From positions 1 to 64,000 of the IMG/VR virus record IMGVR_UViG_3300027996_000012: DNA of 64,000 bases. One strand, given 5' to 3'. Made by a program: the position numbers and the translations under genes. Below, piece by piece: positions 1-55,970 of the stretch; positions within the stretch are counted from its first letter, which is position 1, and each line of letters starts with the position of its first letter. The notes below the pieces were generated by a model. That model saw only the letters and a list, made by a program, of their open reading frames with translations, was not told the origin of the DNA and made no database searches. The DNA comes from a virus (lineage: Duplodnaviria > Heunggongvirae > Uroviricota > Caudoviricetes).

Positions 1-42
1 GACACCCAATCAGGTGGTGGTCTTCTGGCTCTTGACGGGTCA

Positions 43-8700: not shown

Positions 8701-11700
8701 TACCGGTACACAAACAATGAATGCCGTGCAGATGTATGGCGCAGGGGCCACGATGACTTTCCGGGCTCCAAACTCCACCATTGCAAACCTGTATATCGGG
8801 AACGTATACGGAGTTGCATCAACCACAATGATTGCTGGCCACCTCTATGTTGGTACCGCTCTTATTGTTGATGGTAATGGTAGCTCGCTTACAATCAATG
8901 CTGGTAAGGGTTTCTCAATGCTTAATGGCAGCACACTTGATTTGAATACTGGCGGCACCATTACTGGGGCGGGCTATCTGCATTTCTGGTCCGCAGCAGG
9001 AATATCTGACATTGGTGGTACCCTCTCAATTGCTACCGTGCGATGCTACAGCACTTTGGCAGGAGCGGTCTTTGTACCAGGTACCTACGAGTGCGGTGAG
9101 TTCATCATCATCTCCAACGGTGGAGGGGCTCATACCTTCCCATTCCGGGCAGGTGATTATGTGTTCTCGAATGGTAGTCTTCAGTTTGAAGCATACGGCA
9201 CCGCATCGAATACACTCACCATTGACTGCACCACTTATCAACCCGTGACCATCGACGTTGCTGGTGACCTCATTTGGGACACACTGGCGGGGTCCAACGT
9301 CAACATTGTTGTCAATTGTTCAAGTCGAGATGTTCGTTGGCACATTGGCGGGGACGTAGTGGATGCCAAATCAGGTAGTGGTACCGTGACCTGGACCAAG
9401 GGTACCGGGTACATTTATCTGGACACAGACGACAATGATAGCGGCACGGTGGACTTCCTCAACCAACAAACGGATACTGTGATTCAAGGCGAGTGGCCAT
9501 CTTACTACTTCAACGGTACCTCCGCAGAATTTGAACTGGATGATCCCCTACCGTTCCCAGGTGGTTCTAGCACGGCCAAATGGTCTATCGGTGGCTGGAT
9601 TAAACCAGCGGGTAAGCTCAATGCATTTGACTACGAAGTGATCTTTGCCACCGCAGTAGGTAATTCCAATTGGATAAACGCGAACAACTCCCTCTGTCTG
9701 CTAATGTACCAGTATGATCATGCTACGTATCCAGGAAAGCTTCGGTTTGCTATGAAGGACGGCGCTGGAGCCACAATGGATTTCGCTAGCACTGCTACCT
9801 TTCTTTTTAGCACAGGTAACGACCGCTGGCGTCACATCCAGGTACAGCGTAACAACAACAATATCTATCTGTACATTGATGGCGTTCTTGACAGCACTGT
9901 ATCCTGTGCAGCGGTTGGGGCCATTGACACCAGCGATCATTTCAGCCTGGGTAACTTTGTGGGCACAACAGCAGCCTACTGGTTCCATGGCTACATGCGA
10001 GAATGGTCCAAATGGCAGTCTGGTAAGAACTCCAGTCCCCATGATGACAGCATCAGTATCATCCATGGTGGACGCGAGAATATGGACTGGTCGCTAATAC
10101 TCGATAGCGACGATGAGTGGTACAACGGTTTGAACACGACCAACACCAACTGTGTCCTGGATACAGGTGATGATAAGGACGTTGCCCTCACTGGCCCGAT
10201 ACGTCCGGCCAACTACTATGGTCGGTATGGTACCTTTGATCCAAACGGGCAAACCATCAATAGCCCTGGTGTAGTGGCTCTTGGGAACAAAGACGTGTAC
10301 GGCACTCTTGATCTCATGGACGGATGCACGATCACCTGTGATACCTTCTATGTTGGTGGTATCGAGATGGATGGCTTCAAGTGTTTGGCTCAGTCGGCCT
10401 GGTATCTTAATGTTACCACCACCGGCTACTTCTTTGATTCCCAAATTGCTTACTGTGACGCATCGAGCAGCACTGTGGTACCCACAGCCAATCCAATATG
10501 CATAGATCGCGGGAACAACATCGGCATTGACTTCATTGATCCTCAAATCTACCTCTTGGATAATGGACTAACTGCTTGGGCATCAGGCTGGTGGGCCACA
10601 AATCATGGTGGGGCCCATACACGCTTCCTTGCTAGAACACAACAGAACGGCGTCTGGGGTTGTTCTGTGCAGCAATCTGGTAACCACATCTATTGGGCCA
10701 GTACGGTCCATAATGCGATCTCACGCGCCAGTCTTGATGGTCAAGATTTTGAGTACATCAAGACTGGTATCCCCACTCCATACGTGATTACAGTGTGTGC
10801 CGAGCATGGTTACATATGGTACAGTGACTATGTGGGCTACACAGTCGAGCGGGTTGATTTGGACGGCACCAATCAAACCAGTATGGGAACGGCTTCATTA
10901 CCGTCTGGCCTAGCTGTGGACCCAATCAATAAGAAGCTGTATGTCGCCGAAAAGGGCAACGACATCATCTATTCGATGAACTTCGATGGCACCAGTAAAA
11001 CGGCTGTCCATACTCTGGCAGCACTCAGCGAGCCCCGGAAATTGACCATTGACTACATCAATGGGATGCTATATTGGACTGAGGACAATAGCTTTGGCAG
11101 TGGTAATCGAATACGTAGTGGAACTACGGGAGGCGCAAGTCTCACGACTATCTACACAGGCTATGTGACGGACATTGAATGGTCACACCAACAAAATCGG
11201 CTGTACATGAGTGACGACCAAGGATATTGCTGGCGAATGTACGGTGACGGGACCAACCTCCAGACTGTGGTTGATGAGTCTGCGACCACCAGACCTTTCT
11301 ATGGTGTTGGCGTCCTTGATGGTATTGGTGGCGGTGGGAGTCCAGGAACCTGCCCCGATGGACATGATGATAGGCTGTTCGTTGTGGATACCGGAACCAC
11401 TGACGGGATTAGAATGCAGGATCGTGCCTGGGGTACACCGGCAGACTACATGACCGGTCGTGGGATTGCTGCCTCCGATTGCAAGGTTGATGATATCAAT
11501 GGCTGGTTCTACTGGGTAGACAACGTCGTGAATGCAATCATGCGATGCCGACTCAATGGTACACGACCAGAGATGATCATTGACAACAGACTTGACGGCA
11601 CCAATACTGTGAAATGGATTTGCTTGGCTCCGGACAAGGGTTATCTATTCTACGTGAAGACACCTGATAACCAACTTCGACGCTGTAACCTTGATGGTTC

Positions 11701-16241: not shown

Positions 16242-16807
16242 TGGAATTTCTCAACTGGATCAATGACATTATCTCCTCGTTGCTCAGCTTCATACCGCGC
16301 CCGATTATCGTGCGGGCGACTCATGGCGGTGTAAAATGGCCGTGGGGTAAGACAGCCAAGGAAATGTGCCCTGGGTTTCATTGGTACTGGCCTTTTTCAA
16401 CAGAGTTTGAGGTGATCCCTATCGCTCGACAGACGCTCAATCTCAAAACACAAGCCTTGATGACAAAAGACAAACAACAGGTCGTCGTTGGCGCACTTGT
16501 CGTGTACACCATTAACGACGTAGTGCGAGCTATCGGCAAGCGGAACTTTGACATAGATGCGACGGTCTATGACATCACACAAGCCGCGATAGTCGAAGCA
16601 GTGACTAAATGGACTCTCGACGACCTGTTATCTAACATCGCTGATAAGGTGGAAACGCAACTAACCCGCACGGTGCAGAAAAGACTGCGCCAGTTCGGTG
16701 TGCGTGTTCAGCGGACAGCCTTGACTGACTTCTCAACGGCGGTTGTCTACAAGATTCTCAGTGACGGCCTGCCACAGATGCCCCCGCCCGTGGCAGAGGA
16801 GGAATAA
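16241..16807 (+). CDS. SPFH/band-7 (prohibitin/stomatin-like) domain protein
   Basis: The stretch VRATHGGVKWPWGKTAKEMCPGFHWYWPFSTEFEVIPIARQTLNLKTQALMTKDKQQVVVGALVVYTINDVVRA follows the SPFH core pattern. The ATG overlaps the preceding stop. Confidence 0.5.
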   Translation: MEFLNWINDIISSLLSFIPRPIIVRATHGGVKWPWGKTAKEMCPGFHWYWPFSTEFEVIPIARQTLNLKTQALMTKDKQQVVVGALVVYTINDVVRAIGKRNFDIDATVYDITQAAIVEAVTKWTLDDLLSNIADKVETQLTRTVQKRLRQFGVRVQRTALTDFSTAVVYKILSDGLPQMPPPVAEEE

Positions 16808-37128: not shown

Positions 37129-37404
37129 GTGATGGATGTCGCCGATGCATTGATGGAAGAGCTTCTGGCTGCCAAAGCCAGATTGGAAGCTCAGCTTCCG
37201 ATTATCATACGAGCTATCGTTGATTTGTCTCCAAACGTTGATGGGTCGCCTACGAGCGATGATGTTCTGGCAGACATTTACAAACAACTGTCGGATGCGA
37301 ATGTCGATAGCGAACACGGCCACTTTTCTGACAATGTCCTGTGCTGTCTTTACGAACTTTGGATCGAGCAGGACCGAATTCCTCAAGGAGAAGACGATGA
37401 ATAG
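37129..37404 (+). CDS. hypothetical acidic protein (91 aa)
   Basis: ORF whose 3' end overlaps the rsr start. Confidence 0.5.
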   Translation: MMDVADALMEELLAAKARLEAQLPIIIRAIVDLSPNVDGSPTSDDVLADIYKQLSDANVDSEHGHFSDNVLCCLYELWIEQDRIPQGEDDE

Positions 37405-38980
37405 GTACGCACGCACACTTTCGCCAAGTAACACTCCTCAGACGCGCCCCTTGGTCGGTAGTAACCAAGTCGCCAACAGCGGCGGTGGCTTTGGTTGGGA
37501 AGTTGATTGCTGGACACGCTTGGATCGGTTTCTGATTCTTGGGTGTGAAGGCGGAACCTATTATGCCGGTGAGCAGAAGCTCACTATCGAAGCTGCTGAG
37601 TCTCTTCGCATCTGTGCTGCTGAGGATGCACAGCGAACCGTGGACCGCATTGTGCAGATCAGTGACGAAGGCCGGGCTGCAAAGAATGACCCTGCCATTT
37701 TCTGTTTGGCTATGTTGTGTGCCGATGCCCGCTACAGTAGCATTGCACTGCCGCGCCTTAGCGAAGTATGTCGAATCGGAACACACCTGTTCCAATTCGT
37801 GGATGCAGTGACTCAATTCCGTGGCTGGGGCCGTGCCTTGAAGCGTGCCGTCTCGAACTGGTATCTGAATCACCGACCTGATCGGCTGGCCGCTCAGATT
37901 ACGAAGTACAAGCAACGCGGTGGCTGGTCTCATCGTGACGTGCTTCGGTGTTGCCATGCACACACCAACAACGCCGAGATCAACCAGATCCTTGGGTACG
38001 CCGTGCGGAAGCCGGGTGGGGATTACCCGATGGTGACCAACCACACACTGGAAGGCGTCGAAAAGGTCAAGTTGGCTACCACCTCGAAAGAGGTTGCCGC
38101 CTTGGTTCGGAGCTACGGCTTGGTCCGTGAGAACATCCCGACTCAGTTCCTCAATGACCCAAGAGTCTGGGAAGCCATGCTTGAGTTGCGGATGCCTATG
38201 ACGGCTTTGATCCGGAATTTGGGTAAGATGACCAGCATCGACGTTCTGAAGCCCAACACCTCAGCAGTGAAGCAGGTATGTGCCCAGCTTCGGGACCGAG
38301 AGCAGCTTCAACGTGCTCGGGTACATCCATTCAGCGTGCTGCTGGCACTCTCCACCTATCAACAAGGTTGTGGTGTTCGTGGCAGTCTCCGTTGGAGCCC
38401 TGTAACCCAGGTGTTGGATTCCCTGGAAGACGCCTACGATGCATCCTTTGGGTACGTCGAGCCCACTGGTCAGCGTTATCTGCTGGGTGTGGATGTGTCT
38501 GGGTCCATGACCTATGGCACGATCAACAACACGCACTTGACGCCACGGGATGCTGCCGGGTGTATGGCTGCTACTTTGGTTCGATCTGAGGACCAAGTGC
38601 AGACCTATGGGTTCTGCAATACCTTCCACTCGTTGCCCGTTACCAAGCGAACATCGCTTTCTGAAGTGAATCGCATGATCACCGGCCTCCCATTTGGTCG
38701 CACAGACTGTTCACTTCCGATGAGGTACGCGACCCAGGAAAAGATTCCGACTGATGTGTTCGTGATCTACACGGACAGCGAGACCAACTGTAACAGCGTA
38801 CACCCTGCTGTAGCACTACAGGACTACCGCCGGAAGATGGGTATCAACGCCAAGTTGATTGTGGTGGCCTTCACCGCCAACGAGATCTCCATCGCGGACC
38901 CCAACGATGCAGGGATGCTCGATGTCGTTGGCTTCGATGCCAGTGCCCCGAAGATCATGGCTGACTTTGCCCGCGAATGA
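37397..38980 (+). CDS. rsr: Ro60 orthologue (Rsr) with TROVE and vWA domains
   Basis: The TROVE-like N-terminus WEVDCWTRLDRFLILGCEGGTYYAGEQKLT is followed by a vWA MIDAS motif LLGVDVSGSMTYG. The 527 aa length matches Ro60. ATG at 37397 follows AAGGAGAAGACG. Confidence 0.75.
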   Translation: MNRYARTLSPSNTPQTRPLVGSNQVANSGGGFGWEVDCWTRLDRFLILGCEGGTYYAGEQKLTIEAAESLRICAAEDAQRTVDRIVQISDEGRAAKNDPAIFCLAMLCADARYSSIALPRLSEVCRIGTHLFQFVDAVTQFRGWGRALKRAVSNWYLNHRPDRLAAQITKYKQRGGWSHRDVLRCCHAHTNNAEINQILGYAVRKPGGDYPMVTNHTLEGVEKVKLATTSKEVAALVRSYGLVRENIPTQFLNDPRVWEAMLELRMPMTALIRNLGKMTSIDVLKPNTSAVKQVCAQLRDREQLQRARVHPFSVLLALSTYQQGCGVRGSLRWSPVTQVLDSLEDAYDASFGYVEPTGQRYLLGVDVSGSMTYGTINNTHLTPRDAAGCMAATLVRSEDQVQTYGFCNTFHSLPVTKRTSLSEVNRMITGLPFGRTDCSLPMRYATQEKIPTDVFVIYTDSETNCNSVHPAVALQDYRRKMGINAKLIVVAFTANEISIADPNDAGMLDVVGFDASAPKIMADFARE

Positions 38981-45822: not shown

Positions 45823-46218
45823 ATGATTGCTACCACAGGACGAGTTTGCAAAACTGAAGACAAGCGCCACATCTTGTTGATGCGACGACTTGAGGGTGAT
45901 GAAGTCCTCTATGAGGCCATGGATTTGCACAGTGGAGAAATTCTCCCTAGTGTCGAACCTGGTGAGCCCATTGCGGAGAACGTTGCCAAGTACATCGCTG
46001 GGATCATCCAGGCCGCCCACTATCATGGTGGGCAGCTTATCCTCCAGCGGGATGAGTCAGCGGCCGTTGCTGATGCGTTGGCAGCACGACTCAAATTTGA
46101 AGAGTCACCTTTGCTGATGACAGCTTTACAGAAGATTCAGGCAAACACAGATGTGGTGGCTCGCCGGGACTTCCATCGCTTGCAGAAGACACTTGAGGGC
46201 ACGGGGGAGACTAAATGA
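45823..46218 (+). CDS. hypothetical protein
   Basis: RBS AAGGAGACCACG then ATG. Confidence 0.55.
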   Translation: MIATTGRVCKTEDKRHILLMRRLEGDEVLYEAMDLHSGEILPSVEPGEPIAENVAKYIAGIIQAAHYHGGQLILQRDESAAVADALAARLKFEESPLLMTALQKIQANTDVVARRDFHRLQKTLEGTGETK

Positions 46219-47114
46219 AATGGCTGCGATCCCTATTGATTATAGTTGTGATGGGCATCTGTTCGTTGACCCATGCCCAGACAGCGGAGGAACTCCGTTC
46301 TACGGTCGAATATCTCGCTTCACAAGAATTACGTGGTCGGGCGACGGCCACGAAAGACATCCAGAAAGCTCAAGATTGGATCGTGGCTCGGTGCCAGGAA
46401 GCTGGACTTCAGGTTCAACGCCAGACGGTGCCCACCCCGAGGGGTAAGTGCCAGAACGTCATTGCTTGGATCGAAGGCAGCGACCCCACACAGGTTGTGG
46501 TGATCGGTGCTCATCTGGATCATATTGGCGTGAGGAATCGTCGCGTGTATCCAGGTGCGGATGACAATGCCTCGGGCTCCGCAGCAGTGCTTGGGTTGGC
46601 AAAGCGATTCGCAGCCGGTACGCAACCCGCCTTTACCATTGCATTTCAGTGGTACACAGGTGAGGAGATCAACCCCTATTTGGTTGGATCAAAGTATTAC
46701 GTGAAGAACCCAACACTTCCAGTCGGTGACCCAGATATTGATCAGCATATCGTCATGTTGAACATCGATATGATCGGCCACCTAAAGAAGAAGTATGCCA
46801 CCGATGTTGATGTCGATTCTCTTCTTGAGACATTGTTCCCGAAATACCCGTTTGCCAAGTCGATCACATTCAAACGCAACTCGGGTAGCGATCAAGTTTC
46901 ATTTGATAACGGCGGGGTGCCGGTGGCCTTTCTGCATACTGGTACGGACTTTGGTACTTACCACAAGACCACCGACAAACCTGACACACTGAACTATCGT
47001 GGGATGGAGGCAATCTGCAATTTCGCTTATGACTTCATCAATCTGATTGTTGCACAGGACGTTCCCCCAGACTACATCATCTGGAGTTTGCCTGAAATCA
47101 TTATCCCTCGTTAA
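46215..47114 (+). CDS. secreted M28-family zinc peptidase (aminopeptidase / glutaminyl-cyclase fold)
   Basis: Signal peptide MKWLRSLLIIVVMGICSLTHAQ, with HLDH and GADDNASGSAAVL metal-ligand motifs. Confidence 0.7.
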   Translation: MKWLRSLLIIVVMGICSLTHAQTAEELRSTVEYLASQELRGRATATKDIQKAQDWIVARCQEAGLQVQRQTVPTPRGKCQNVIAWIEGSDPTQVVVIGAHLDHIGVRNRRVYPGADDNASGSAAVLGLAKRFAAGTQPAFTIAFQWYTGEEINPYLVGSKYYVKNPTLPVGDPDIDQHIVMLNIDMIGHLKKKYATDVDVDSLLETLFPKYPFAKSITFKRNSGSDQVSFDNGGVPVAFLHTGTDFGTYHKTTDKPDTLNYRGMEAICNFAYDFINLIVAQDVPPDYIIWSLPEIIIPR

Positions 47115-47125
47115 GGAGCACTACT

Positions 47126-47842
47126 TTGCCAGATGCACATACGATTACCGTGGTGGAACCCGGATTTGAGTTGAGTCCGTATAACAACTTTGCACAGTTG
47201 GAACGAGCCTGTGAATGGGCCGGTCGCAAGTGCTACAAGTCGGAAGACAAGATCACCGCTGACTCGGCCACCAAATTCTGTCGGGGTTTGCTCAGTCGCA
47301 AGCCGCCACACCAGAGTGTGGTTGAGCACGCAATCTTGACAGCAAATATCATCTGTAGCCGCTCATGCAGCCACCAGTTGGTTCGGCATCGGATTGCGGC
47401 ATATAGCCAAGAATCACAGCGGTACTGTGACTATGGCAAGAAGGGCTTTCAGATCATTTGCCCACCTAGTATTGGTGTTCCCGCAGGGGAATACACAGTG
47501 GAGCGCAATGGTGTCAATGGATCATTGTTCTGTTACCCTGATCCTACTACGATAGAACAGAAGTGGTTCATGTACAAGGCTTGGCAGGACTATGATTTGT
47601 ACATGCAGTATCGTGAACGCGGGATCAAACCAGAAGATGCCCGTGAAGTATTGGGCAATTGTACCAAGACTGAAGTTGTTTCAACCTTCAATATCAGTAT
47701 GTGGCGACATGTTTTCAAGGAACGTGCCTTGAACCCACGAGCCCAGTGGCAGATTCGCGGCATCTTTCGGAGCATCCTGGACGTGTTTGTCGAACGAGCA
47801 CCCTCACTATTCGCTGACCTTTTGGAGACGGATGAAGCATGA
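47126..47842 (+). CDS. thyX: flavin-dependent thymidylate synthase ThyX (TTG start)
   Basis: The ThyX motif RHRIAAYSQES (RHR-x7-S). RBS AAGGAG lies 8 nt upstream of the TTG. Confidence 0.8.
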   Translation: MPDAHTITVVEPGFELSPYNNFAQLERACEWAGRKCYKSEDKITADSATKFCRGLLSRKPPHQSVVEHAILTANIICSRSCSHQLVRHRIAAYSQESQRYCDYGKKGFQIICPPSIGVPAGEYTVERNGVNGSLFCYPDPTTIEQKWFMYKAWQDYDLYMQYRERGIKPEDAREVLGNCTKTEVVSTFNISMWRHVFKERALNPRAQWQIRGIFRSILDVFVERAPSLFADLLETDEA

Positions 47843-50472
47843 GTATGGAAATAACACCACTCTTTTGTGACGAGATGGACCCGTTTGAAAGCGTGGACTG
47901 GGACAAACGAAATGCGAGTATTATTGGTGAAGGTGATGAAGTCATCTTCAGCCAAACTGACATAGACGTACCGGTGTCTTGGTCACAAACTGCCCTCAAC
48001 ATTGTGGCCAGTAAATACTTCTATGGTGAGCAGGACACGGATGAGCGGGAAACCAGCATCCGACAACTGATTCATCGGGTTACCAAGACTGTTACCGACT
48101 GGGGTATTGAAGATGGGTACTTCGACAAAGAGAACGGTGAAGTATTTTACCGTGAACTTACCTGGCTTTGTCTCCACCAACACATGGCCTTCAATTCACC
48201 AGTCTGGTTCAATGTTGGTATATGGCAGGAATATGGTGTCACCGGCACCCCTTGTGGTTTCACTTGGAACGATGGCGAGATTCTCCCTGTTCAGAACCCC
48301 CATGAAGAACCCCAGGTCTCTGCATGTTTCATCCAGAGCGTGGCTGACAACATGGAAGACATCATGCGGTTTGCAACGGATGAAGCCATGCTGTTCAAGT
48401 TTGGCTCCGGCGTAGGTGCTGATCTTTCAACACTGCGTGGTTCATGCGAGAAGCTGTCCGGTGGCGGTCGTGCTTCTGGTCCTCTGAGCTTTGCTCGTAT
48501 CTACAACATGGTTGCAGAGGTAGTCAAAAGTGGTGGCAAGACCCGGCGGGCAGCCCTATTGTTTAGCATCAAGGATTCGCATCCGGACCTGATGCAGTTC
48601 ATTCAGTGCAAGGCCCGCGAAGAAGCCAAGGCAGCTACACTGGTGGGCAAGGGGTATTCACCGCAGGATGCCTACATGTCGGTGCTGTACCAGAATGCTA
48701 ACCTATCTGTTCGACTCTCGGATGAGTTCATGATTCAAGTGAACAAAGATGGAGATTGGTATACTCGGTGGGTCACCGATTCGGCCGTGAGTGGGCCTCA
48801 CCATAAAGCGCGGGCGATACTACGTGCCATTGCCGAAGCAGCATGGGAGTGTGGCGACCCCGGAGTGCAGTTCGATACAGCTTTGAATAAGTGGCATACT
48901 TGCCCGGTGTCTGGTAGAATCAATGCCAGCAACCCATGTGGTGAGTACAATTACCTAGACAATTCGGCATGTAACCTTGCCAGTTTGAATCTGATGAAGT
49001 TTCGACAGCAAGATGGCTCACTGAATGTTTCGTTGTTTCAGGCTGCGGCTCGTATCGCTTTGATAACACAGGATATCATGGTGGATAGAGCTAGCTATCC
49101 GTCTGCTAAGATCGCACAGACCAGTCATCGACACCGGGCTTTGGGACTTGGGTACTCAAATTTGGGTAGCTTTGTCATGTCCAACGGGGTTGCGTATGAT
49201 TCAGAGCTTGGTAGAAGCATATGTGCTGGCATCACTGCTATCATAACTGGGACTGCTTATGCAGCCAGTGCCGAGATTGCCGAACACCTGAGTCCATTCG
49301 AGGACTTTGAGTTGAACCGTACTCCGATGCTTGAGGTAATGAGTGAGCATTATGCAGCTTTAGGGCGAATGCCAATGCCAGCATATCTCGCTGAAGCGGC
49401 CCATATCGTTTGGAAACACGCGCGGACACACGGTGATCTACATGGGTACCGTAATGCTCAAACCACCGTGCTCGCTCCAACGGGCACCATTTCATTCATG
49501 ATGGATTGTTCCACGTTTGGTATCGAACCTGATTTGGCTCTGATGAAATACAAGAGGCTGGCTGGTGGTGGCACCCTAAAGATGGTCAACAAGAGTGTCC
49601 CGAAGGCCCTTCGTTTCCTGGGCTACGCAGAGGACGATATCGATACTCTCATGGCTTGGGTCGAAGAGAAGGGTACCTTTGAAGGTTCCCTGTTGAAGCC
49701 GGATCATTTGTCAGTATTCGACACAGCCTTAGCTCCACAGGGTAGCTCCAGAAGTATTGCCGCTAGCGCCCATTTGAAGATGTTGGCGGCAGCACAGCCA
49801 TTCCTTAGTGGTGCGATTTCTAAGACAATCAACATGCCTGCATCGGCGACAGTGCAGGACTTTGAGGACGCCATTATCAAGGCATGGCGACTCGGACTCA
49901 AGTCTGTTACTCTTTACAGAGATGGTTCTAAGAGCCACCAACCACTGAACACGGCGTTGGACAAAAAGGGTGCGAGTCAATCCCCGCCTAAACAAGTTCG
50001 CCGACCGCTCCCGGATGAACGGAAGTCCGTCACGAAAAAGATTTCGATCAGCGGACATGAAGGTTATGTCACCGTGGGTCTGTATCCCGATGGCACACCT
50101 GGGGAGCTTTTCATTGCCATGTCAAAAGAGGGAAGCACTATTAGTGGGATGATGGATGCATTCAGTATCGCTGTGTCTCTGGGCTTCCAACATGGTGTCC
50201 CGATGACTACGTTTGTGGACAAGTTTGCCTACATGCAGTTTGAGCCGATGGGCTTCACGAAGGATGCGGACATCAAGATGGCAAAATCAATTGTGGACTT
50301 CATCTTTCGGTGGATGCAATTGCGATTCCAAATTTCAGAAGTTGCCACGACCACTTCTGAAACGACCGATCAAGAAGCCACGCCGATTTGTGATCAGTGT
50401 GGCAGCATGACAGTTCGCAGTGGGTCATGCTATCTGTGTTACAACTGTGGAACATCAATGGGCTGTAGCTAA
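47839..50472 (+). CDS. ribonucleotide reductase, probably class II (B12-dependent NrdJ-like), with a C-terminal zinc ribbon
   Basis: Active-site NPCGE, 877 aa, C-terminal CDQCGS...CYLCYNCG. No separate beta subunit was seen. Confidence 0.8.
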   Translation: MSMEITPLFCDEMDPFESVDWDKRNASIIGEGDEVIFSQTDIDVPVSWSQTALNIVASKYFYGEQDTDERETSIRQLIHRVTKTVTDWGIEDGYFDKENGEVFYRELTWLCLHQHMAFNSPVWFNVGIWQEYGVTGTPCGFTWNDGEILPVQNPHEEPQVSACFIQSVADNMEDIMRFATDEAMLFKFGSGVGADLSTLRGSCEKLSGGGRASGPLSFARIYNMVAEVVKSGGKTRRAALLFSIKDSHPDLMQFIQCKAREEAKAATLVGKGYSPQDAYMSVLYQNANLSVRLSDEFMIQVNKDGDWYTRWVTDSAVSGPHHKARAILRAIAEAAWECGDPGVQFDTALNKWHTCPVSGRINASNPCGEYNYLDNSACNLASLNLMKFRQQDGSLNVSLFQAAARIALITQDIMVDRASYPSAKIAQTSHRHRALGLGYSNLGSFVMSNGVAYDSELGRSICAGITAIITGTAYAASAEIAEHLSPFEDFELNRTPMLEVMSEHYAALGRMPMPAYLAEAAHIVWKHARTHGDLHGYRNAQTTVLAPTGTISFMMDCSTFGIEPDLALMKYKRLAGGGTLKMVNKSVPKALRFLGYAEDDIDTLMAWVEEKGTFEGSLLKPDHLSVFDTALAPQGSSRSIAASAHLKMLAAAQPFLSGAISKTINMPASATVQDFEDAIIKAWRLGLKSVTLYRDGSKSHQPLNTALDKKGASQSPPKQVRRPLPDERKSVTKKISISGHEGYVTVGLYPDGTPGELFIAMSKEGSTISGMMDAFSIAVSLGFQHGVPMTTFVDKFAYMQFEPMGFTKDADIKMAKSIVDFIFRWMQLRFQISEVATTTSETTDQEATPICDQCGSMTVRSGSCYLCYNCGTSMGCS

Positions 50473-50484
50473 CAGGAGATACAC

Positions 50485-51141
50485 ATGCTGACTATTACAC
50501 AACTGATTCAAGAATCCCATGGCACCGCAGTGGAAAAGGGTTGGTGGGAAGATTGGGACCGCAACTTTGGTGAAATGCTGATGCTGTTCATTACTGAGAT
50601 CACCGAAGTCTGGGAAGAAATCAGTGATGATGGCATCCCCAACCCAGCCCAGTGGATAACCATCAACCCGGATACTCAGAAGCCAGAAGGCTTGGCTGTC
50701 GAATTTGCTGACTTGTTGATTCGAGCCGCCGACACTGTGGGGCGATACGAACTCCCACTGGTAGAAGCATTGAAGAGTCTCCTAAGCTGGGATAAGGTTT
50801 ATCGTGAGATAGACAACGAGCCGGTGGCTCGATTTGTACCCATCGAGTTGTTGATGGGCCGGTCGTTTGCTGTCGTGGGTGAGGGACAGGACGAGGAGTG
50901 GGTACGGGGCAATTTACAAGATGGCCTGCTGGACATCATCACCCCGATTAGCCATGCCATGGAAGCCTACCGTGTCAGTGGTGTCGAAGACACCCGAATT
51001 CTGGCGGGACATTTTGCCGAGATATTCATAGCGACGGCAGCACTCTGTGAAGATTTTGATGTACCGCTTGAAAAGGCTCTGGAAGTCAAGCTGGCTTACA
51101 ACAAGACACGACCGTACCGACATGGAGGAAAGAAAGCATGA
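50485..51141 (+). CDS. MazG-like nucleotide pyrophosphohydrolase
   Basis: EEXXE-type tracts EMLMLFITEITEVWEE and an all-alpha composition. Confidence 0.5.
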   Translation: MLTITQLIQESHGTAVEKGWWEDWDRNFGEMLMLFITEITEVWEEISDDGIPNPAQWITINPDTQKPEGLAVEFADLLIRAADTVGRYELPLVEALKSLLSWDKVYREIDNEPVARFVPIELLMGRSFAVVGEGQDEEWVRGNLQDGLLDIITPISHAMEAYRVSGVEDTRILAGHFAEIFIATAALCEDFDVPLEKALEVKLAYNKTRPYRHGGKKA

Positions 51142-52352
51142 GACGCCAATGCATAGTTTGTGAGTCCAGGAACCTAATCCCATTGTATGATCCCGGCCCA
51201 CAGCCGTTGACCACATTACGTATTCCACAGACGGTTGCTGATGCTATGTGTGCCCCTAAATTCGGGATGCATCATGTTCTGTGTGAGGATTGTGGCCACA
51301 TTTTCAATCTTCAATTTGAAGAGAAGAACGTGGACTATGAACAGGACTGGCAGATGTACAATAGTGGCATTGCCTGGAAGGATCATTTTGAGCGGGCGGC
51401 CAACGAGATTCTGGAACGTGCCCAATTACCTGATACCAGTACAGTTCTTGAAATCGGGAGCGGTAGCGGCGGGTTTATGCGCGAAATGATTCAGTATCCA
51501 CTCGGGGCCCGTCTTCGATACCGTGGCGTCGATCCTGGCGTTGATGTGTCAGATGCTGAGTTTGCCAACGAAGGCCAGGATATCATCATTGAACGCGCAT
51601 TTGCCAACTGTGAATACGACATTGATAAGCATGAGCCCAGTTTGATCATCATGCGACATGTCCTGGAGCACTTCCCGCGTCCAGCCGAGTTTATCGATGA
51701 ACTGGTGCGTGCCTGCCACATTACTCAGGTATCCCCGTTTGTGTTCATCGAAGTGCCTAATGGCGATCTCATTCTGGATCGGCTTCGTTCACAGGACATG
51801 ATGTACGAGCATGTTTCACATTTCACGCTGAGTAGCTTGGATGTACTACTGCGTAAGCATTTTCGTGTAGTCTATCTCAAGCCAGACTGCCGTGGATCGA
51901 TGCTGACCGCGTTGGTGAAATTACGATCCCCAATGTCACATCGGAAACGGGCCGAGGGGTTTGCTGATCAGATCGCCCTTCAGGTCGCCACGGTACAGGG
52001 TCAATTGGAGTTCCTTAGAACCCAAGAGTTGGATGACACGTACAACCGACCGCTAGCCTTCTGGGGCGCGATTGGCAAGAGTGCTTCATTCTTCAATCTG
52101 TATCAAGTGGACAAGACACGGTACCCGTTGGTGGTGGATTCTAATTTGGCCTTGGTGGAACTGTTTGTCCCCGGCACAGGGCAGGAAATCAAATTTCCTA
52201 TCGACGAGTTGGTGCAAGATCCGCCACGAACCATCATTGTTACGTCAGCTTGGCGAATTCACGATATCGCTGATCAAATTCGTTCGATTGGCATCAACTG
52301 CAAGCAAATCATGTACATTGACAACGGTCAACTTGTACCATATGGAGGGTGA
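51138..52352 (+). CDS. SAM-dependent methyltransferase of the NDP-hexose C-methyltransferase (TylC3-like) architecture
   Basis: An N-terminal CxxC...CxxC zinc module, the SAM motif VLEIGSGSGGF, and a C-terminal extension. Confidence 0.6.
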   Translation: MRRQCIVCESRNLIPLYDPGPQPLTTLRIPQTVADAMCAPKFGMHHVLCEDCGHIFNLQFEEKNVDYEQDWQMYNSGIAWKDHFERAANEILERAQLPDTSTVLEIGSGSGGFMREMIQYPLGARLRYRGVDPGVDVSDAEFANEGQDIIIERAFANCEYDIDKHEPSLIIMRHVLEHFPRPAEFIDELVRACHITQVSPFVFIEVPNGDLILDRLRSQDMMYEHVSHFTLSSLDVLLRKHFRVVYLKPDCRGSMLTALVKLRSPMSHRKRAEGFADQIALQVATVQGQLEFLRTQELDDTYNRPLAFWGAIGKSASFFNLYQVDKTRYPLVVDSNLALVELFVPGTGQEIKFPIDELVQDPPRTIIVTSAWRIHDIADQIRSIGINCKQIMYIDNGQLVPYGG

Positions 52353-52353
52353 T

Positions 52354-54192
52354 ATGTTCCCATCGATTCAAGCATTAGGCCAGTTTGGTGATATCTTCAA
52401 GCATGTAGCCGTTCGACTCAAGTTGGCATACGAGACCAGAAACTACCCTCAGTATGCTGCCTTGTTCAATGATTCCATGGGTTTGTATCACAAGCTGGAA
52501 TCAGCCCGCCCGGATGCCGCAGCTAAAGCCGGAATCTCTGATTTCATGGGAGTGTTGTTGTCCACCTTCGTAGGCGAAAAATTCCAACTGGAAGCCTATG
52601 ATGCCGCCCGCTTCATTGATTTCAATCCGATGATAGCCAACCTCTTAGCTGCCTCAAAGCACGAGACAGCGGACAGATGGTTGGATCAACTCTTGGATGC
52701 TGACGGACAGATTGCTGAGCCATTTGAGCACAACTTTCTGAAGGTACTGGTACTGCTGTCATCTCGTATCAGACGCCGGGTGAATTTTGACATCTTGCAT
52801 GAGGGCGACCGAGAGGCTGTAGCCCTGTGGTGGTCAGCATATACACGCGGAGTCAGCAACACAGCGGAAGATTACATCAATGAGAATCTGACTCGATGTT
52901 TCCGATGGGGACCACCGCCTGCATTCCCTCAAGATACTCGCGTTACTAATGCTGCTTTCCTTGCGTCCTACAAAGACCTGCCGGGGAGTCGAAAGCTGAA
53001 GCAGCGGGTCAACGAGCACATTCAGAAGAGATGGCCACAGCTTGAAGTCACCAACAACCCCGATCCAAAACGGATAGCGGTTATCACCAATAGCTGGCAG
53101 AATCGCCATGTGATCTATCGTACTATGGGGCCGCTGGTTAAGGCCCTGCATGGCCAGTATCGCATGGATCTGTTTCAAGGGCAACCCCATGACCCTGATA
53201 AACAAGACACGACCATCTTTGAGAACGTGTATGAGTTGTCAACCGACAAGAAGGACCCGTTGCAGAATCTTGGACCGCTACTAAATAACCAGTATGGTGC
53301 GGTCATGTATGTTGACATTGGTATGTCGAATCTGTCGGTGATCCTCTCGAATCAGAGATTTGCGCCAATACAAATGGCACTGATGGGACATCCAGTCAGT
53401 ACGTTTGGTGGTAAGATCGACTACTTCATCAGCGGTGACCTTGGTGAGAATCTAAACATGGCAGAAGTGAATTACTCTGAGCGATTGGTATTGCTGCCTG
53501 GCCTGGGGATTCAAGCCACACAACCTGCTTACGAGTTGCAACGCCCCAAGCGGGATGAGACCATCGTTATCAATGCGTGCTGGAGTGGTGCCAAATTCAA
53601 TCGCCCCATGTTAGAAGCTGTTCGTGATGCAATGGACAATGCAAAGCGGAAGTCACGGGTCCACTTCTTCCCGAACGACGGGATCAATCGTTACTTTGGG
53701 TTCAGTGCTTTTGAAAACAGTACCAAGAGCATTATGGGTGACCGCGCGGTGATCATGGAGACAGCAGGCGGGCGACCCGCTTACATGCACAGACTAGAGC
53801 GTGGCGACTTCGGAATTGACTCCTATCCGTTCTGTGGGTTCAACACGATCTTTGACCTGTTGCATGTTCAGAATCCAGTTGTCACATTCCAGGGTGGCCA
53901 GTGGCACAATCGAGCATCTTCAGCAATTATCGATGTCATGGGTATGGGTGAGTTGATTACCACTAACTATGACACATACCGCGATCTGATCACGCGAATG
54001 ATCGATGATGATGATTTTCGTACCAAAATGGTAGCCCGTATCAAACAAGATGTGCTGCGGGATGCGTTCTATACTGACACGACGGAGCAGGTGGCGTTCA
54101 AGACTGCTGTGCAGTATCTCATTGAACAGCAACCCAATCCGAATACTATCAGTCCCATTTACATTCGTGGAGCAAGTCCATGCCACATTTGA
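52354..54192 (+). CDS. GT41-family (OGT / HMW1C-like) glycosyltransferase, paralogue 1
   Basis: The C-terminal lobe tracks the OGT/HMW1C catalytic domain: INACWSGAKFNRPMLEAV, HFFPNDG, DSYPFCGFNTIFDLLHVQNPVVTFQGG..ASSAIIDVMGMGELIT. ATG at 52354 follows GGAGGG. Confidence 0.6.
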   Translation: MFPSIQALGQFGDIFKHVAVRLKLAYETRNYPQYAALFNDSMGLYHKLESARPDAAAKAGISDFMGVLLSTFVGEKFQLEAYDAARFIDFNPMIANLLAASKHETADRWLDQLLDADGQIAEPFEHNFLKVLVLLSSRIRRRVNFDILHEGDREAVALWWSAYTRGVSNTAEDYINENLTRCFRWGPPPAFPQDTRVTNAAFLASYKDLPGSRKLKQRVNEHIQKRWPQLEVTNNPDPKRIAVITNSWQNRHVIYRTMGPLVKALHGQYRMDLFQGQPHDPDKQDTTIFENVYELSTDKKDPLQNLGPLLNNQYGAVMYVDIGMSNLSVILSNQRFAPIQMALMGHPVSTFGGKIDYFISGDLGENLNMAEVNYSERLVLLPGLGIQATQPAYELQRPKRDETIVINACWSGAKFNRPMLEAVRDAMDNAKRKSRVHFFPNDGINRYFGFSAFENSTKSIMGDRAVIMETAGGRPAYMHRLERGDFGIDSYPFCGFNTIFDLLHVQNPVVTFQGGQWHNRASSAIIDVMGMGELITTNYDTYRDLITRMIDDDDFRTKMVARIKQDVLRDAFYTDTTEQVAFKTAVQYLIEQQPNPNTISPIYIRGASPCHI

Positions 54193-55970
54193 CACGAGCT
54201 TTACCTGATCTTCTTCTCGATGATATTCGTCAGGCTTACAAAGAGAAGAACTATATGCACTACATGGTGTTGATAGTCGAAGCTATGCGACTCTTTTGCA
54301 CCGTCAACTTTGGTCCAATGCAGCCAAAAACCGAGAAGTATGTGGACGAGTTTCTGGAAGTCTTCCTGGATACATTCACCGGGAAGAAGTTTCGTATTGC
54401 AGGCATGGATGAGGAATACTTCGTCCGCCTAAATCCAGTCATCGCCAACATCGTAGCCATGTCCAGATTCAAGACCGCCGATAAGTGGTTGGCCCAACTG
54501 GATATGCGAACCAAAGGCCATCGTGCCAAGATACTCACCCTGGTGTGCCCACGGACCAGCGTACAGGTTGACTATGACACTTTGGAGAAGGACTCATTAG
54601 CAACCCTGTGGTGGTCACTATATCCAACCTGCACGGGTAGCATCATCAACCCACGAATCGAAAAGAATCTCCGAAATCATTTCAGGGCCGGACCCTTTGG
54701 TGATTTTCCACAAACCACCCAGTTCACGGACATCCACTTTGTGCCAACGTATGCTGATCATGACGGTGCCCCGTTGATTAAGGCTCGTATCAACGAGTGT
54801 GTTCGTAAGAAGTGGCCGCCTATGAAGATCACAAACAACCCAGATCCAAAGCGGATTGCAATCATTTCTGACCGGTGGGCACCCAACACTGTGGTCCATC
54901 GAAGTGTGGCCCCGCTCATCAACGCTCTGAAGGGGCCGTTCAAGTTGGACTTGTTTCATTTGAACAGGGATGCTGGTGATTTGAAATTGGACACCGAGGG
55001 CTTCGAGAAGGTTCATTTCATCCATACTGAGGGCAATGATTTCCTCGGTCTGGAACCGTTGTTGGATAACCAGTACGCAGCTATCATCTACCCGGATGTT
55101 GGCATGAACTCGCAGTCCATCATTCTGGCCAACCAAAGATTTGCACCCATCCAGGTTTTGACCACCGGCCACCCAGTCAGTACAGTTGGAACCGAGATTG
55201 ATTTTTTCATCAGTGGAGACGCTGTGGAGTCCTCTGAGGCGTACCTTAATTATTCAGAGCGGTTAGTGTTACTCCCTGGGATGGGAAATCAGTCAGTTCG
55301 CCCAACATACGAACTCACCAACCCGGAGCGGGAAACTGACATTGTTCTGATCAACGCATGTTGGGGCCCGTCTAAGTACAATCGTGATATGCTTACGGCT
55401 GTGCGAGCCGGGATGATGGATGCCAAACACGAGTCGCGTGTACATTTCTTCCCAAGCAGCGGGATCTGTCGTTACAACGGGTTGAATGCATTCCTGACGG
55501 AGATTCACGACATTTTTGAGGGCGGGAGCGCCCGTGTTCTACCCGATAATGGTGGTTATGCTGGTTATATGGCCAGATTGGAATGGGGCGATTTTGGTAT
55601 TGATTCTTTCCCGTTCGGAGGTTACAATACAATTATCGATCAATTGCATGTTGGTAAACCAGTAATCACTCTACAGGGTGATCATTGGTACAATAGAGCA
55701 TCATCGGCCGTGAACCGTATGCTGAACATGCCGGAACTCATTGCTGAGAGTCGGTATGGATACCAGAAACTGATCACACGGATGATTGATGACGAAGAGT
55801 TTCGCCAGGAAATGCGGCAGCGTGTACAGGTTGCGCCAATGGACGAGAAGATTTATGACAACATATCCGAACCGGCTCATTTTGTGGCTGCCATGGACTA
55901 CTTGATCGAGCATCATCCCGATCCTAATTTTCCTCACCCCGTGTATATCTCGCCAGGAGAAACTATATGA
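54180..55970 (+). CDS. GT41-family glycosyltransferase, paralogue 2
   Basis: Collinear with paralogue 1: INACWGPSKYNRDMLTAV, HFFPSSG, DSFPFGGYNTIIDQLHVGKPVITLQGD. Confidence 0.6.
   Translation: MPHLTRALPDLLLDDIRQAYKEKNYMHYMVLIVEAMRLFCTVNFGPMQPKTEKYVDEFLEVFLDTFTGKKFRIAGMDEEYFVRLNPVIANIVAMSRFKTADKWLAQLDMRTKGHRAKILTLVCPRTSVQVDYDTLEKDSLATLWWSLYPTCTGSIINPRIEKNLRNHFRAGPFGDFPQTTQFTDIHFVPTYADHDGAPLIKARINECVRKKWPPMKITNNPDPKRIAIISDRWAPNTVVHRSVAPLINALKGPFKLDLFHLNRDAGDLKLDTEGFEKVHFIHTEGNDFLGLEPLLDNQYAAIIYPDVGMNSQSIILANQRFAPIQVLTTGHPVSTVGTEIDFFISGDAVESSEAYLNYSERLVLLPGMGNQSVRPTYELTNPERETDIVLINACWGPSKYNRDMLTAVRAGMMDAKHESRVHFFPSSGICRYNGLNAFLTEIHDIFEGGSARVLPDNGGYAGYMARLEWGDFGIDSFPFGGYNTIIDQLHVGKPVITLQGDHWYNRASSAVNRMLNMPELIAESRYGYQKLITRMIDDEEFRQEMRQRVQVAPMDEKIYDNISEPAHFVAAMDYLIEHHPDPNFPHPVYISPGETI

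Follow-up and report, generated by a model that had tools for sequence, protein, structure and literature searches.

What does a phage gain from two tandem glycosyltransferase (GT) genes preceded by a gene for a sugar methyltransferase (MT)? We examined this question in an uncultured phage of ∼177 kb, working on a 64-kb stretch of its DNA (the window). The first-pass annotation had proposed that the phage glycosylates its own fibers, citing a high density of N-x-S/T sequons within them. The sequon argument did not survive analysis, and cytoplasmic protein glycosylation remains the best reading. We tentatively propose that MT, GT-A, and GT-B (Table 1) make up an accessory cassette that glycosylates proteins in the cytoplasm, derives from a flagellar locus, and has virion proteins as its most probable substrates; we assign this proposal a probability of roughly 0.4.

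Table 1. Features of the window relevant to the glycosyltransferase cassette
Feature	Coordinates	Strand	Remarks
Fiber-like protein, C-terminal 1141 aa of 3604 aa	1..3426	+	Frame open to base 1; candidate substrate only
Fiber-like protein, 775 aa	3429..5756	+	Laminin_G_3; candidate substrate only
Fiber-like protein, 2408 aa	5768..12994	+	Laminin_G_3 and YWTD-like propeller repeats; candidate substrate only
MT, NDP-sugar 3-C-methyltransferase homolog	51138..52352	+	Opens the cassette; Zn-ribbon N-domain, SAM domain, C-methyltransferase C-domain
GT-A, soluble HMW1C/NGT-fold GT41, "A-type" paralog	52354..54192	+	All-alpha N-domain plus GT-B domain
GT-B, second NGT-fold GT41 glycosyltransferase, "B-type" paralog	54180..55970	+	
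Sigma-70-type promoter consensus, perfect	57058..57087	+	TTGACA, 18-nt spacer, TG-TATAAT; consensus match only
175-aa weakly sulfotransferase-like protein	58438..58965	+	phrog_3347, Sulfotransfer_1, motifs

Organization and distribution of the cassette

The cassette genes are arranged in the order MT, GT-A, GT-B. The GT-A stop and the GT-B start overlap by 13 nt, and the GT-B stop overlaps the start of an RNA ligase gene by 4 nt. The promoter-like site lies between the RNA ligase and an exonuclease gene, and this predicted promoter is likely the downstream limit of the cassette transcription unit. Among 64 related IMG/VR phage contigs, MT and GT were both present in 31, both absent from 33, and never found singly, a co-occurrence that is partly phylogenetic, as the GT-positive contigs mostly represent a single sub-lineage. 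Because the two genes always occur together and are jointly absent from 33 contigs, they appear to constitute a two-gene functional unit that is dispensable for replication. The GT diverges fast (26 to 32% identity, versus 52 to 64% for the neighboring exonuclease), which fits an enzyme that follows variable substrates.

A sulfotransferase-like gene had also been associated with the cassette. The functional call holds weakly: phrog_3347 was matched by 4/6 homologs (best E value, 2.3e-6) and Pfam Sulfotransfer_1 by 1/6 (4e-4), and the protein carries two PAPS-loop-like motifs, AxPRT[AG]S and VRNPxDxxVSWW. A PDB profile search with this protein gave no match, and its single-sequence AlphaFold model has a pLDDT of 36. 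Its association with the cassette fails, as the gene occurs independently (4/31 GT-positive and 4/33 GT-negative contigs) and lies in a separate transcription unit, downstream of the promoter-like site. The gene thus probably lies outside the cassette.

The cassette is surrounded by a nucleotide and RNA repair block (RNR, MazG-like, RNA ligase, and exonuclease genes) that includes no structural genes, which counts against a virion target. These surroundings raise the alternative of a nucleic acid acceptor, either hypermodified phage DNA or an RNA tied to the adjacent RNA repair genes, with the MT tailoring the sugar. In keeping with this idea, the order SNF2 helicase, phosphoesterase, MT, GT, RNA ligase, and Mre11-like exonuclease is stable; the RNA ligase co-varies with the cassette (23/31 GT-positive contigs versus 1/33 GT-negative contigs); and the window also encodes a MazG-like pyrophosphatase, ThyX, a dCMP deaminase, and a dNMP kinase. 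However, the phage DNA GTs of two published studies have the GT-A fold (TarP/JGT-like), are T4-BGT-like, or are other GT-B-fold enzymes that resemble lipid or small-molecule GTs, and neither text names GT41. These DNA GTs also adjoin a hydroxymethylase or a C5-MT plus TET, and neither a ThyA-type hydroxymethylase nor a dioxygenase was found in the window. Compared with viral structures, the phage GT model best matched generic GT-B proteins (TM score, <0.4), and the score for a cyanophage DNA alpha-GT was 0.30. With the informative bacterial contexts of the family all involving protein substrates (see below), we consider a nucleic acid target highly improbable.

GT-A and GT-B share the fold of N-glycosyltransferases

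The first-pass annotation described two collinear GT41 paralogs of the HMW1C/ApNGT architectural subtype, and each element of this description was borne out. Both open reading frames are real (the public gene call P0001 yields an identical 612-aa product), and their products are 45% identical over 587 aa (E value, 1e-173). Pfam PF13844 scored 37.1 and 46.3 bits against a gathering cutoff of 25, with the match spanning only the C-terminal ∼100 aa. The subtype follows from the lack of TPR matches, a full-length profile alignment, and the NGT fold of the AlphaFold model. ApNGT and AaNGT were the top PDB sequence matches of both GTs (E values, 1e-18 and 5e-16). The family profile aligned to AaNGT with an E value of 5e-57 (profile positions 19 to 563 to AaNGT residues 14 to 601), whereas the same profile matched OGT/SPINDLY at 1e-18 to 1e-21 in the C-lobe only. 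The AlphaFold model (pLDDT, 91.9) consists of helices over residues 9 to 226 followed by the GT-B domain; its TM score was 0.78 to 0.80 to the AaNGT/ApNGT structures 8P0O, 3Q3E, and 8J30, compared with about 0.55 to OGT/SPY. No such enzyme was found in cultured phages or among BFVD structures. To our knowledge, the GTs that act on mycobacteriophage virions belong to other enzyme families rather than to GT41 or the NGT fold.

The nucleotide-sugar site appears intact. Of the five UDP-contacting residues of ApNGT (named in PMC10466321), four are kept: K441, Y501, N521, and D525 correspond to GT-A K414, Y477, N497, and D501, and the equivalent of H495 is not conserved in the phage GTs. Every member inspected, whether from phages, from flagellar loci, or from the TPS-linked and sequon-linked groups, keeps the Lys and Asn of this site and has Asp or Glu at the Asp position.

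Sequon recognition and the fiber proteins

The full-length homology and shared fold would be expected of canonical HMW1C-type N-glucosyltransferases, which in this phage would place a hexose on Asn within the N-x-S/T sequons of the fibers. In NGT, the Arg177/Asp215 dyad recognizes the +2 Ser/Thr of the sequon, and Arg177 is essential for peptide binding, AaNGT R177A being inactive (PMC10507012); ApNGT D215N is still active, with broader specificity (PMC10466321). At the Asp215 position, GT-A has Asn199. GT-B has Asp184, and Asp is likewise found in five other window-clade members, in favor of canonical activity; elsewhere among the phage members, this position is P, V, T, L, A, or G. The Arg177 region argues against it: the phage and flagellar-locus clades share a 1-aa deletion and have no conserved basic residue there, whereas TPS-linked and sequon-linked bacterial members conserve Arg or Lys ("E.YRSG"), in an alignment of this segment that may be shifted by 1 to 2 residues. 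The NCBIfam NGT equivalog NF049992 scored 93.1 and 79.8 bits, far below its cutoff of 1000. Recognition by the phage GTs probably differs from the canonical Arg/Asp reading of N-x-S/T.

The fibers themselves had been described as saturated with sequons, a claim that our counts contradict. The 58 sequons of the three fibers compare with 54 expected by composition (pooled z, 0.62), or 17 versus 14.7, 10 versus 9.3, and 31 versus 29.7 in composition shuffles of the individual proteins, and their density within the window is 13 to 15 per 1000 aa. The reversed control motif scored higher (z, 1.97). The first fiber, whose full length of 3604 aa and LRP1-like beta-propeller both come from L112, falls below expectation, with 28 sequons versus 36.4 expected in the visible 3331 aa (z, -1.65). 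Laminin_G_3 and LRP1/YWTD-like propellers were the only domain signals in the fibers.

No sequon enrichment was seen in the proteins of the window or in those encoded up to 10 kb from the GT at 24 related viral loci (best z, 2.7); the module for the capsid and tail lies farther off, about 77 kb upstream. Against a background of 780 proteins (mean z, 0.04; standard deviation, 1.14), proteins beside bacterial GT homologs, which served as positive controls, reached z values of 3.7 to 10.6, including giant proteins adjoining the GT in Planctomycetes and Nitrospirae (10.6, 7.1, 6.3, and 5.1). The test has power, since giant proteins adjoining homologous planctomycetal GTs score z values of 6 to 11. 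Some bacterial members of the family are evidently sequon directed, as canonical activity would have it. The phage fibers show no such enrichment, and the nearest relatives of the phage GTs lie beside flagellins with slightly fewer sequons than expected (z, -1.3 to -1.6). Taken together, these results make canonical sequon glucosylation of the fibers decidedly unlikely.

The methyltransferase

The identification of the MT as a TylC3-type enzyme was well founded. The protein contains VLEIGSGSGG and four Zn cysteines, and its profile covers the three domains of MtmC, a KijD1-like enzyme, and TcaB9 (E values over positions 7 to 360 of profile A3: MtmC, 4e-24; 5t64, 2e-17; TcaB9, 1e-15). Pfam Methyltransf_23 matched at 3e-13, Methyltransf_13 and Methyltransf_14 matched weakly, PF08484 was above threshold in MT homologs, and a PDB sequence search matched MtmC (4rv9; 5e-10). 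The four Cys and Y223-E224-H225 are invariant across 31 MT homologs. This Y-E-H aligns to the "EH" of MtmC, and E224/H225 of TcaB9 are presumably its active-site Glu-His. The family is nearly restricted to this phage lineage, with 53 matches before a drop to an E value of 3e-10. Searches of the window for a nucleotide-sugar 4,6-dehydratase or any further gene of a sugar pathway that could feed the MT found none, which weighs against the proposed function; the MT substrate would have to be host supplied. In P0088, a fusion protein of the GT family, the fused MT domain shows no homology to the phage MT. One MT-GT41 fusion adjoins lasso peptide-like genes.

The solved relatives of the MT belong to natural-product deoxysugar pathways, which could suggest an acceptor other than protein, such as a small molecule, a lipid, or a glycan of the cell envelope; the NGT-like fold would then reflect ancestry alone. 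The lasso peptide-associated fusion might be read in the same way, although it implies a peptide acceptor. We consider this reading very unlikely: the acceptor-side all-alpha domain is predicted to be kept at high model confidence, polysaccharide and lipid-carrier genes are absent near the cassette, and all characterized GT41 members known to us modify proteins or peptides.

Cellular relatives and proposed function

The cellular GTs nearest the phage clade adjoin giant flagellins or FliD rather than TPS adhesin operons, in a grouping of phage and flagellar-locus GTs with a neighbor-joining bootstrap of 33%. At the Thermoguttaceae locus L074, an MT gene lies between the GT and fliD, and its product is 33% identical to the phage MT. 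A Gloeobacter homolog resides in a TpsA(TPS+CHAT)-TpsB-GT operon, and TPS linkage also occurs in Cuspidothrix; neither a TpsA adhesin nor a TpsB transporter was found in the phage window. All informative cellular contexts of the GT family point to a large exported protein as the substrate. GT41 enzymes, mostly fused to MT domains, also occur in flagellin glycosylation islands (PMC4875605).

These flagellin and FliD contexts also allow for a host protein target, in which the cassette would re-glycosylate flagellin or a surface protein (blocking superinfection or altering motility) or act as an intracellular takeover device. The position of the cassette among nucleotide metabolism and RNA repair genes, away from structural genes, its accessory status in the lineage, and the fast divergence of the GT would all suit such a role. 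A lytic cycle would allow little time for flagella to be rebuilt, and the sole experimentally documented phage-encoded protein glycosylation known to us, through a secondary citation, modifies virion proteins. A host target is therefore a possible but less likely explanation.

We favor cytoplasmic glycosylation of virion proteins. In each GT, an all-alpha domain for acceptor binding would clamp onto the GT-B catalytic domain, whose nucleotide-sugar site is intact. Drawing on nucleotide sugars made by the host, the GTs would pass a sugar straight to a protein that is folded, or still folding, inside the infected cell, with linkage to Asn or to Ser/Thr. The MT may methylate the transferred sugar, and the simplest point for this would be while the sugar is still bound to its nucleotide. 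The most probable substrates would be large virion proteins exposed on the particle, either the 3604-, 775-, and 2408-aa fiber-like proteins or structural proteins encoded beyond the window; by analogy, the fibers are plausible targets. The most likely source of the cassette is a locus for flagellar glycosylation in a bacterium, probably a planctomycete, and the GT duplication probably predates diversification of the window's clade.

Comparison with known systems

Like the T4 alpha/beta-GTs and the GTs that add glycans to 5hmC or 5hoC, the cassette GTs are phage enzymes containing a GT-B domain and encoded amid nucleotide metabolism genes. The DNA-modifying enzymes belong to another fold subclass that lacks the NGT-type N-domain, and their genes invariably accompany one for a base-hydroxylating enzyme, of which the window has none. 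The MT shares with TylC3, TcaB9, MtmC, and KijD1 the three domains, the four Zn cysteines, the SAM motif, and the E-H aligned with MtmC. It differs in its pairing with a presumed protein GT instead of a natural-product GT, in a window with no dehydratase, aminotransferase, or ketoreductase partner.

A precedent for virion protein glycosylation by phage-encoded GTs comes from mycobacteriophages, in which such enzymes work in the cytoplasm and decorate proteins of the phage's own virion (Freeman et al. 2023, as cited in PMC12619734). As relayed there, the glycans are located on the C termini of capsid and tail-tube subunits of those phages, whereas the present phage is uncultured.

The GT41 enzymes of flagellin glycosylation islands resemble the phage system in being partnered with an MT, and the nearest bacterial relatives of the phage GTs have a giant flagellin or FliD as a direct neighbor and, in one case, a TylC3-like MT as well. 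The Enterobacteriaceae enzymes, in contrast, have a SPINDLY/OGT-type domain (PMC4875605), the phage has no flagellar genes, and the kinship of flagellar-locus and phage GTs is based on a weakly supported neighbor-joining tree and the shared 1-aa deletion.

The closest structural counterparts are HMW1C, ApNGT, and AaNGT (CAZy GT41; PDB entries 3Q3E, 8J30, and 8P0O). Unlike these enzymes, to which they are only 18 to 20% identical, the phage GTs lack the dyad Arg and have Asn for Asp in GT-A, have neither a TPS partner nor a sequon-enriched candidate substrate in the phage, and are phage encoded and paired with a sugar C-methyltransferase. They share with them a length of about 600 aa without TPRs, an all-alpha N-domain joined to a GT-B domain (E value, 5e-57; TM score, 0.8), and the UDP-contacting Lys/Tyr/Asn/Asp. 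Distant members of the phage GT family also occur in TpsA-TpsB-GT operons that resemble hmw1ABC.

Genomic context of the cassette

The genes between 46215 and 57061 form a single plus-strand run in which stops and starts abut or overlap. Within this run, a methyltransferase gene (MT) precedes two glycosyltransferase genes, GT-A and GT-B, whose products are collinear paralogues of about 600 aa, as the first-pass annotation had stated (45% identity over 587 residues). The exact GT-A product is also present in a public gene call on a 177,656-bp contig. A perfect 12/12 match to a sigma-70-type promoter consensus, with an extended -10 TG, is predicted in the 54 nt that separate the RNA ligase and exonuclease genes; the unit downstream of it comprises an Mre11/SbcD-like exonuclease, a 175-aa protein, and a PNK-like kinase. 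No sugar-nucleotide pathway genes were found within the 64-kb window. Searches of 50,697 deposited phage genomes (megablast/tblastn, with the region DNA and GT-B) returned no match, and the primase retrieved one weak match among phage records. No cultured relative is available for comparison.

Features of the phage window and of cellular loci containing NGT-fold glycosyltransferases
Feature	Coordinates	Strand	Remarks
Fibre-like protein F1	1-3426
Fibre-like protein F2	3429-5756
Fibre-like protein F3	5768-12994
SPFH/Band_7 protein	16199-16807
tRNA-Met	29421		ARAGORN
tRNA-like gene, 90 nt	30048-30137		Rfam 36 bits, without ARAGORN call
tRNA-Glu	34425		ARAGORN
Ro60 orthologue	37220-38980		TROVE 5e-37; Ro60 vWA 3e-61
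M28 peptidase	46215-47114	+
ThyX	47126-47842	+
Class II ribonucleotide reductase	47839-50472	+
MazG-like pyrophosphatase	50485-51141	+
Methyltransferase (MT)	51138-52352	+
GT-A	52354-54192	+	612-aa product
GT-B	54180-55970	+
RNA ligase	55967-57061	+
Predicted promoter	57058-57087		Consensus match
175-aa protein	58438-58965
tmRNA, phage-encoded	62378-62727		Rfam RF00023, 124 bits; ARAGORN tag peptide AKPLFATAA
tRNA-Thr	63536		ARAGORN
Hyper-sequon giant proteins (1261-2204 aa)	L057:9767-16381; L073:5325-10718; L054:10894-15225		Beside NGT-fold GT41
Hyper-sequon giant proteins (same size range)	L092:7045-10830; L089:1194-7274	-	Beside NGT-fold GT41
Planctomycetal flagellin/FliD	L049:2973-6170; L069:4370-7111; L071:3866-6661; L034:9932-12808; L074:11379-14225		Beside NGT-fold GT
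TpsA-TpsB-GT operon, Gloeobacter kilaueensis	L005:3616-11806
MT and two tandem GTs, bacterial	L044:3237-9626
Methyltransf_23-GT41 fusion locus, bacterial	L006:9209-12547

Elsewhere in the window, the Ro60 orthologue, RNA ligase, PNK-like kinase, tmRNA, and several tRNAs, together with a Thg1 encoded in one relative (L003), suggest an RNA repair and quality-control toolkit. The window also encodes a second Band_7 match, a small PQ-loop membrane protein, a dCMP deaminase, a dNMP kinase, a NUDIX protein, a nucleoside 2-deoxyribosyltransferase-like protein, and an SMC/AAA_23 ATPase.

Family and fold of the glycosyltransferases

GT-A and GT-B exceeded the Pfam GT41 threshold over their last ~100 residues only, and neither contains TPR repeats. 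The best PDB sequence matches of both were ApNGT and AaNGT, solved soluble N-glycosyltransferases (NGTs) of the HMW1C type (E 1e-18, 5e-16), with O-GlcNAc transferases matching far more weakly. A profile built from 66 family members aligned end to end with AaNGT (positions 19-563 with AaNGT 14-601; E 5e-57), whereas SPINDLY/OGT matched the same profile in the C-lobe only (1e-18 to 1e-21). The AlphaFold model of GT-A (pLDDT 91.9, pTM 0.91) is helical to about residue 226, followed by a domain of the GT-B fold. When this model was compared with the PDB by Foldseek, AaNGT/ApNGT ranked at the top (TM 0.78-0.80), and OGT, SPY, and XcOGT scored 0.50-0.59. The UDP-contacting residues of ApNGT (K441, Y501, N521, and D525; PMC10466321) have equivalents in K414, Y477, N497, and D501. 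Given the profile, fold, UDP-contact, and TPR-less evidence, the original assignment to GT41 of the HMW1C/ApNGT subtype is correct at the level of architecture. NGT-like structures were absent from the viral models of BFVD, where nothing ranked above generic GT-B-fold proteins (TM < 0.4). Three single proteins of 1163-1736 aa (P0176, P0177, and P0178) each carry two to three stretches matching the NGT-fold profile.

The sole pointer to a nucleic-acid target is the nucleotide-metabolism neighbourhood of the cassette. This reading is unlikely because the fold is NGT-like and unlike that of known phage DNA glycosyltransferases, the enzymes keep the peptide-binding domain, the window was found to encode no base-hydroxylating enzyme, and the term GT41 is absent from the two phage DNA-glycosyltransferase studies compared.

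Acceptor-reading residues and the sequon test

Both phage enzymes scored far below the NCBIfam NGT equivalog cutoff (93 and 80 bits versus 1000). In AaNGT, Arg177 and Asp215 of the all-alpha domain read the +2 Ser/Thr of the sequon, and the R177A and D215A variants are inactive (PMC10507012). The Asp215 position is Asp in GT-B and its close relatives, Asn in GT-A, and Pro, Val, Thr, Leu, Ala, or Gly in more distant phage members. The Arg177 segment holds a conserved Arg ("E.YRSG") in many bacterial members; in all phage members it carries a one-residue deletion and lacks a conserved basic residue. Judged from these alignments, the phage proteins are NGT-fold enzymes with a diverged acceptor-reading apparatus, which makes new specificities possible.

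The first-pass annotation had argued for fibre glycosylation by two GT41 enzymes on the grounds that the fibre-like proteins F1 to F3 are saturated with N-x-S/T sequons. We counted N-x(not P)-S/T against shuffles of each protein's own composition and scored control motifs alongside. F1 (as visible in the window), F2, and F3 contained 17, 10, and 31 sequons, compared with 14.7, 9.3, and 29.7 in the shuffles; pooled, there were 58 against 54.0 expected (z 0.62), with control motifs at z 1.97 (S/T-x-N) and 1.77 (D-x-S/T). Only the C terminus of F1, a 3604-aa protein (see L112:1-9998), lies in the window; the 3331 residues of the protein that are visible contain 28 sequons versus 36.4 expected (z -1.65). 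Sequon density in the fibres merely reflects their Asn-, Ser-, and Thr-rich composition; the proposed saturation did not survive this comparison, and sequon enrichment as a sign of fibre targeting was rejected on the basis of the shuffles and control motifs.

Across 111 loci, the 780 proteins encoded close to family members gave a mean z of 0.04 (standard deviation 1.14); the outliers were giant proteins directly beside a glycosyltransferase in Planctomycetes and Nitrospirae. Two contained 114 sequons versus 49 expected (z 10.6) and 63 versus 29 (z 7.1), a third, from a Kuenenia MAG, contained 42 versus 18.5 (z 6.3), and two further loci reached z 5.1 and 3.7. Thus, the test is not powerless. 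A comparable excess was seen neither in the window nor in 24 related viral contigs, where proteins up to 10 kb from the glycosyltransferase were scored, the highest z being 2.7. The capsid/tail module lies ~77 kb upstream. Canonical N-x-S/T glycosylation, in which the phage enzymes would read the sequon as AaNGT does, is best regarded as an improbable special case alongside these counts and the residues at the Arg177 and Asp215 positions.

The fibre-like proteins also contain YWTD/LRP1-like beta-propeller repeats (3604-aa and 2408-aa proteins) and Laminin_G_3 (ConA-like) domains (775-aa and 2408-aa proteins). None of the three matched a PHROG. Orthologue searches gave two weak matches for the F1 fragment and none for F3 in IMG/VR, and the F1 N terminus had no match in JGI metagenomes.

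The methyltransferase and the 175-aa protein

MT contains the motif VLEIGSGSGG and four Zn cysteines, and its Pfam matches span the Zn domain, the SAM domain, and the C-methyltransferase C-domain. The family profile matched MtmC (4e-24), a KijD1-like sugar 3-C-methyltransferase (2e-17), and TcaB9 (1e-15) over positions 7-360, with an invariant Y-E-H aligned to the E-H of MtmC; the earlier description as a TylC3-type C-methyltransferase-like gene is borne out. The family is small, with 53 matches, mostly unnamed metagenomic proteins of ~400 aa, before a drop to 3e-10. Bacterial Methyltransf_23-GT41 fusions were considered as a Rosetta stone for MT and rejected, since the fused domain shows no specific homology to it (E 0.14). 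One such fusion (848 aa, locus L006) has PqqD and a transglutaminase-like protein as neighbours and a TPR-GT41 upstream; the locus resembles a lasso-peptide-type RiPP cluster that includes glycosylation.

The 175-aa protein had been called sulfotransferase-like. Weak signals for this recur among six homologues, four of which match phrog_3347 (best 2.3e-6) and one Sulfotransfer_1, and there are motifs that resemble the two PAPS-binding loops. A PDB profile search gave no match, tblastn against phages was uninformative, and a single-sequence AlphaFold model was unusable (pLDDT 36). Its proposed association with the cassette was not borne out: among the best 80 of 171 related contigs, the gene occurs in 4/31 cassette-positive and 4/33 cassette-negative contigs and thus does not track MT and the glycosyltransferases.

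Distribution among related phages

An IMG/VR scan with the single GT-B sequence retrieved nothing; an alignment-based scan retrieved 24 viral contigs with glycosyltransferase relatives, most of which encode SNF2 helicase, phosphoesterase, MT, GT, RNA ligase, and exonuclease in that order. Searching with the exonuclease (52-64% identity across the lineage) yielded 171 contigs, and 64 of the best 80 had at least 6 kb upstream of this gene. Among these 64, MT and GT occurred together in 31, both were absent from 33, and neither was ever found alone. RNA ligase was present in 23 of the 31 cassette-positive contigs versus 1 of the 33 negative ones. At 26-32% identity, the glycosyltransferases are far more diverged than neighbouring genes. 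Within the clade containing the window's enzymes (100% bootstrap), support is 92% for an A-type group and 100% for a B-type group, so the duplication is older than these phages. One relative retains only A and others only B, and tandem pairs occur in other phages and in one bacterial locus.

Cellular relatives of the glycosyltransferases

The NGT-fold family comprises 2,775 representatives at 50% identity (E <= 1e-30) and is common in Cyanobacteria and Planctomycetota. In Gloeobacter kilaueensis, a 1540-aa TpsA (TPS secretion domain, 4e-38, plus CHAT), a ShlB-type TpsB, and an NGT-fold glycosyltransferase follow the hmw1A-B-C order; a CHASE2 kinase and a LysM/DUF928 protein are encoded upstream. 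TpsB also adjoins the glycosyltransferase in Cuspidothrix, and the enzymes of both TPS-linked loci keep the Arg and the Asp/Glu. Those beside the five hyper-sequon giant proteins keep the Arg and have His at the Asp position. In these giant proteins, N-x-S/T occurs 1.4- to 2.3-fold above composition (z 3.7-10.6), with NAT, NGT, and NLT favoured, making them candidates for heavily cytoplasmically N-glycosylated surface proteins; we know of no such system as described.

In a neighbor-joining tree, the six bacterial enzymes nearest those of the phages are encoded beside giant flagellins of 913-1065 aa (three), FliD proteins of 948-958 aa (two), and a TPR-containing GT41 (one). These enzymes share the deletion of the phage clade and lack both sequon-reading residues, and the adjacent flagellins are slightly sequon-poor. 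In the Thermoguttaceae locus L074, a TylC3-like methyltransferase 33% identical to MT lies between the glycosyltransferase and fliD; another flagellar locus (L069) also encodes a radical SAM enzyme and a TylF-like O-methyltransferase. Enterobacterial flagellin glycosylation islands likewise hold GT41 enzymes, mostly with methyltransferase domains (PMC4875605). Because bootstrap support for the exact clade of phage and flagellar-locus enzymes is 33%, an origin of the cassette in a flagellar locus is a tentative lead. A host protein as the target, with flagellin an obvious candidate, is a serious rival reading, if a rather unlikely one. A separate bacterial locus (L044, also encoding Der/EngA and GpsA) contains the same TylC3-like methyltransferase along with a radical SAM gene and a tandem pair of NGT-fold glycosyltransferases, an arrangement that parallels MT-GT-GT in the window.

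Proposed function and comparison with known systems

The two-enzyme cassette evolves fast and can be dispensed with, and its cellular relatives adjoin genes for large exported proteins of filaments or the cell surface. Glycosylation of protein in the cytoplasm is the most economical account: the glycosyltransferases would transfer sugar onto protein from a host-derived nucleotide sugar, which MT would tailor, and the most likely targets would be the phage's own large exposed proteins. We assign this reading a probability of roughly 0.4. In a more specific and somewhat less probable form, this widespread uncultured lineage may have taken a flagellin-glycosylation cassette (NGT-fold GT41 plus sugar C-methyltransferase) from a probably planctomycetal host and may decorate its giant fibre-like virion proteins with a methylated sugar, using a mode of recognition unlike canonical N-x-S/T reading. 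If true, the cassette would be the first known instance of GT41/HMW1C-type protein glycosylation in any bacterial virus.

NGT-fold enzymes constitute a large uncharacterised family, whose genomic neighbours include giant flagellins as well as TPS exoproteins and hyper-sequon giant proteins. Cytoplasmic glycoengineering seeks soluble enzymes of the NGT type as tools, and the phage members may offer new acceptor specificities. The MT-GT cassette is present in about half of the contigs fetched (31/64) from a large uncultured phage lineage. Should virion proteins prove to be the target, the 31 positive and 33 negative contigs among the best 80 of 171 would provide a natural comparison for the purpose of the glycan. 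To our knowledge, demonstrations of virion glycosylation in phages are recent and come from a single phage group. Phage-encoded enzymes glycosylate mycobacteriophage virions, according to work cited in PMC12619734; with virion proteins as the target, the present cassette would add both an enzyme class and a host phylum to those known for such self-glycosylation.
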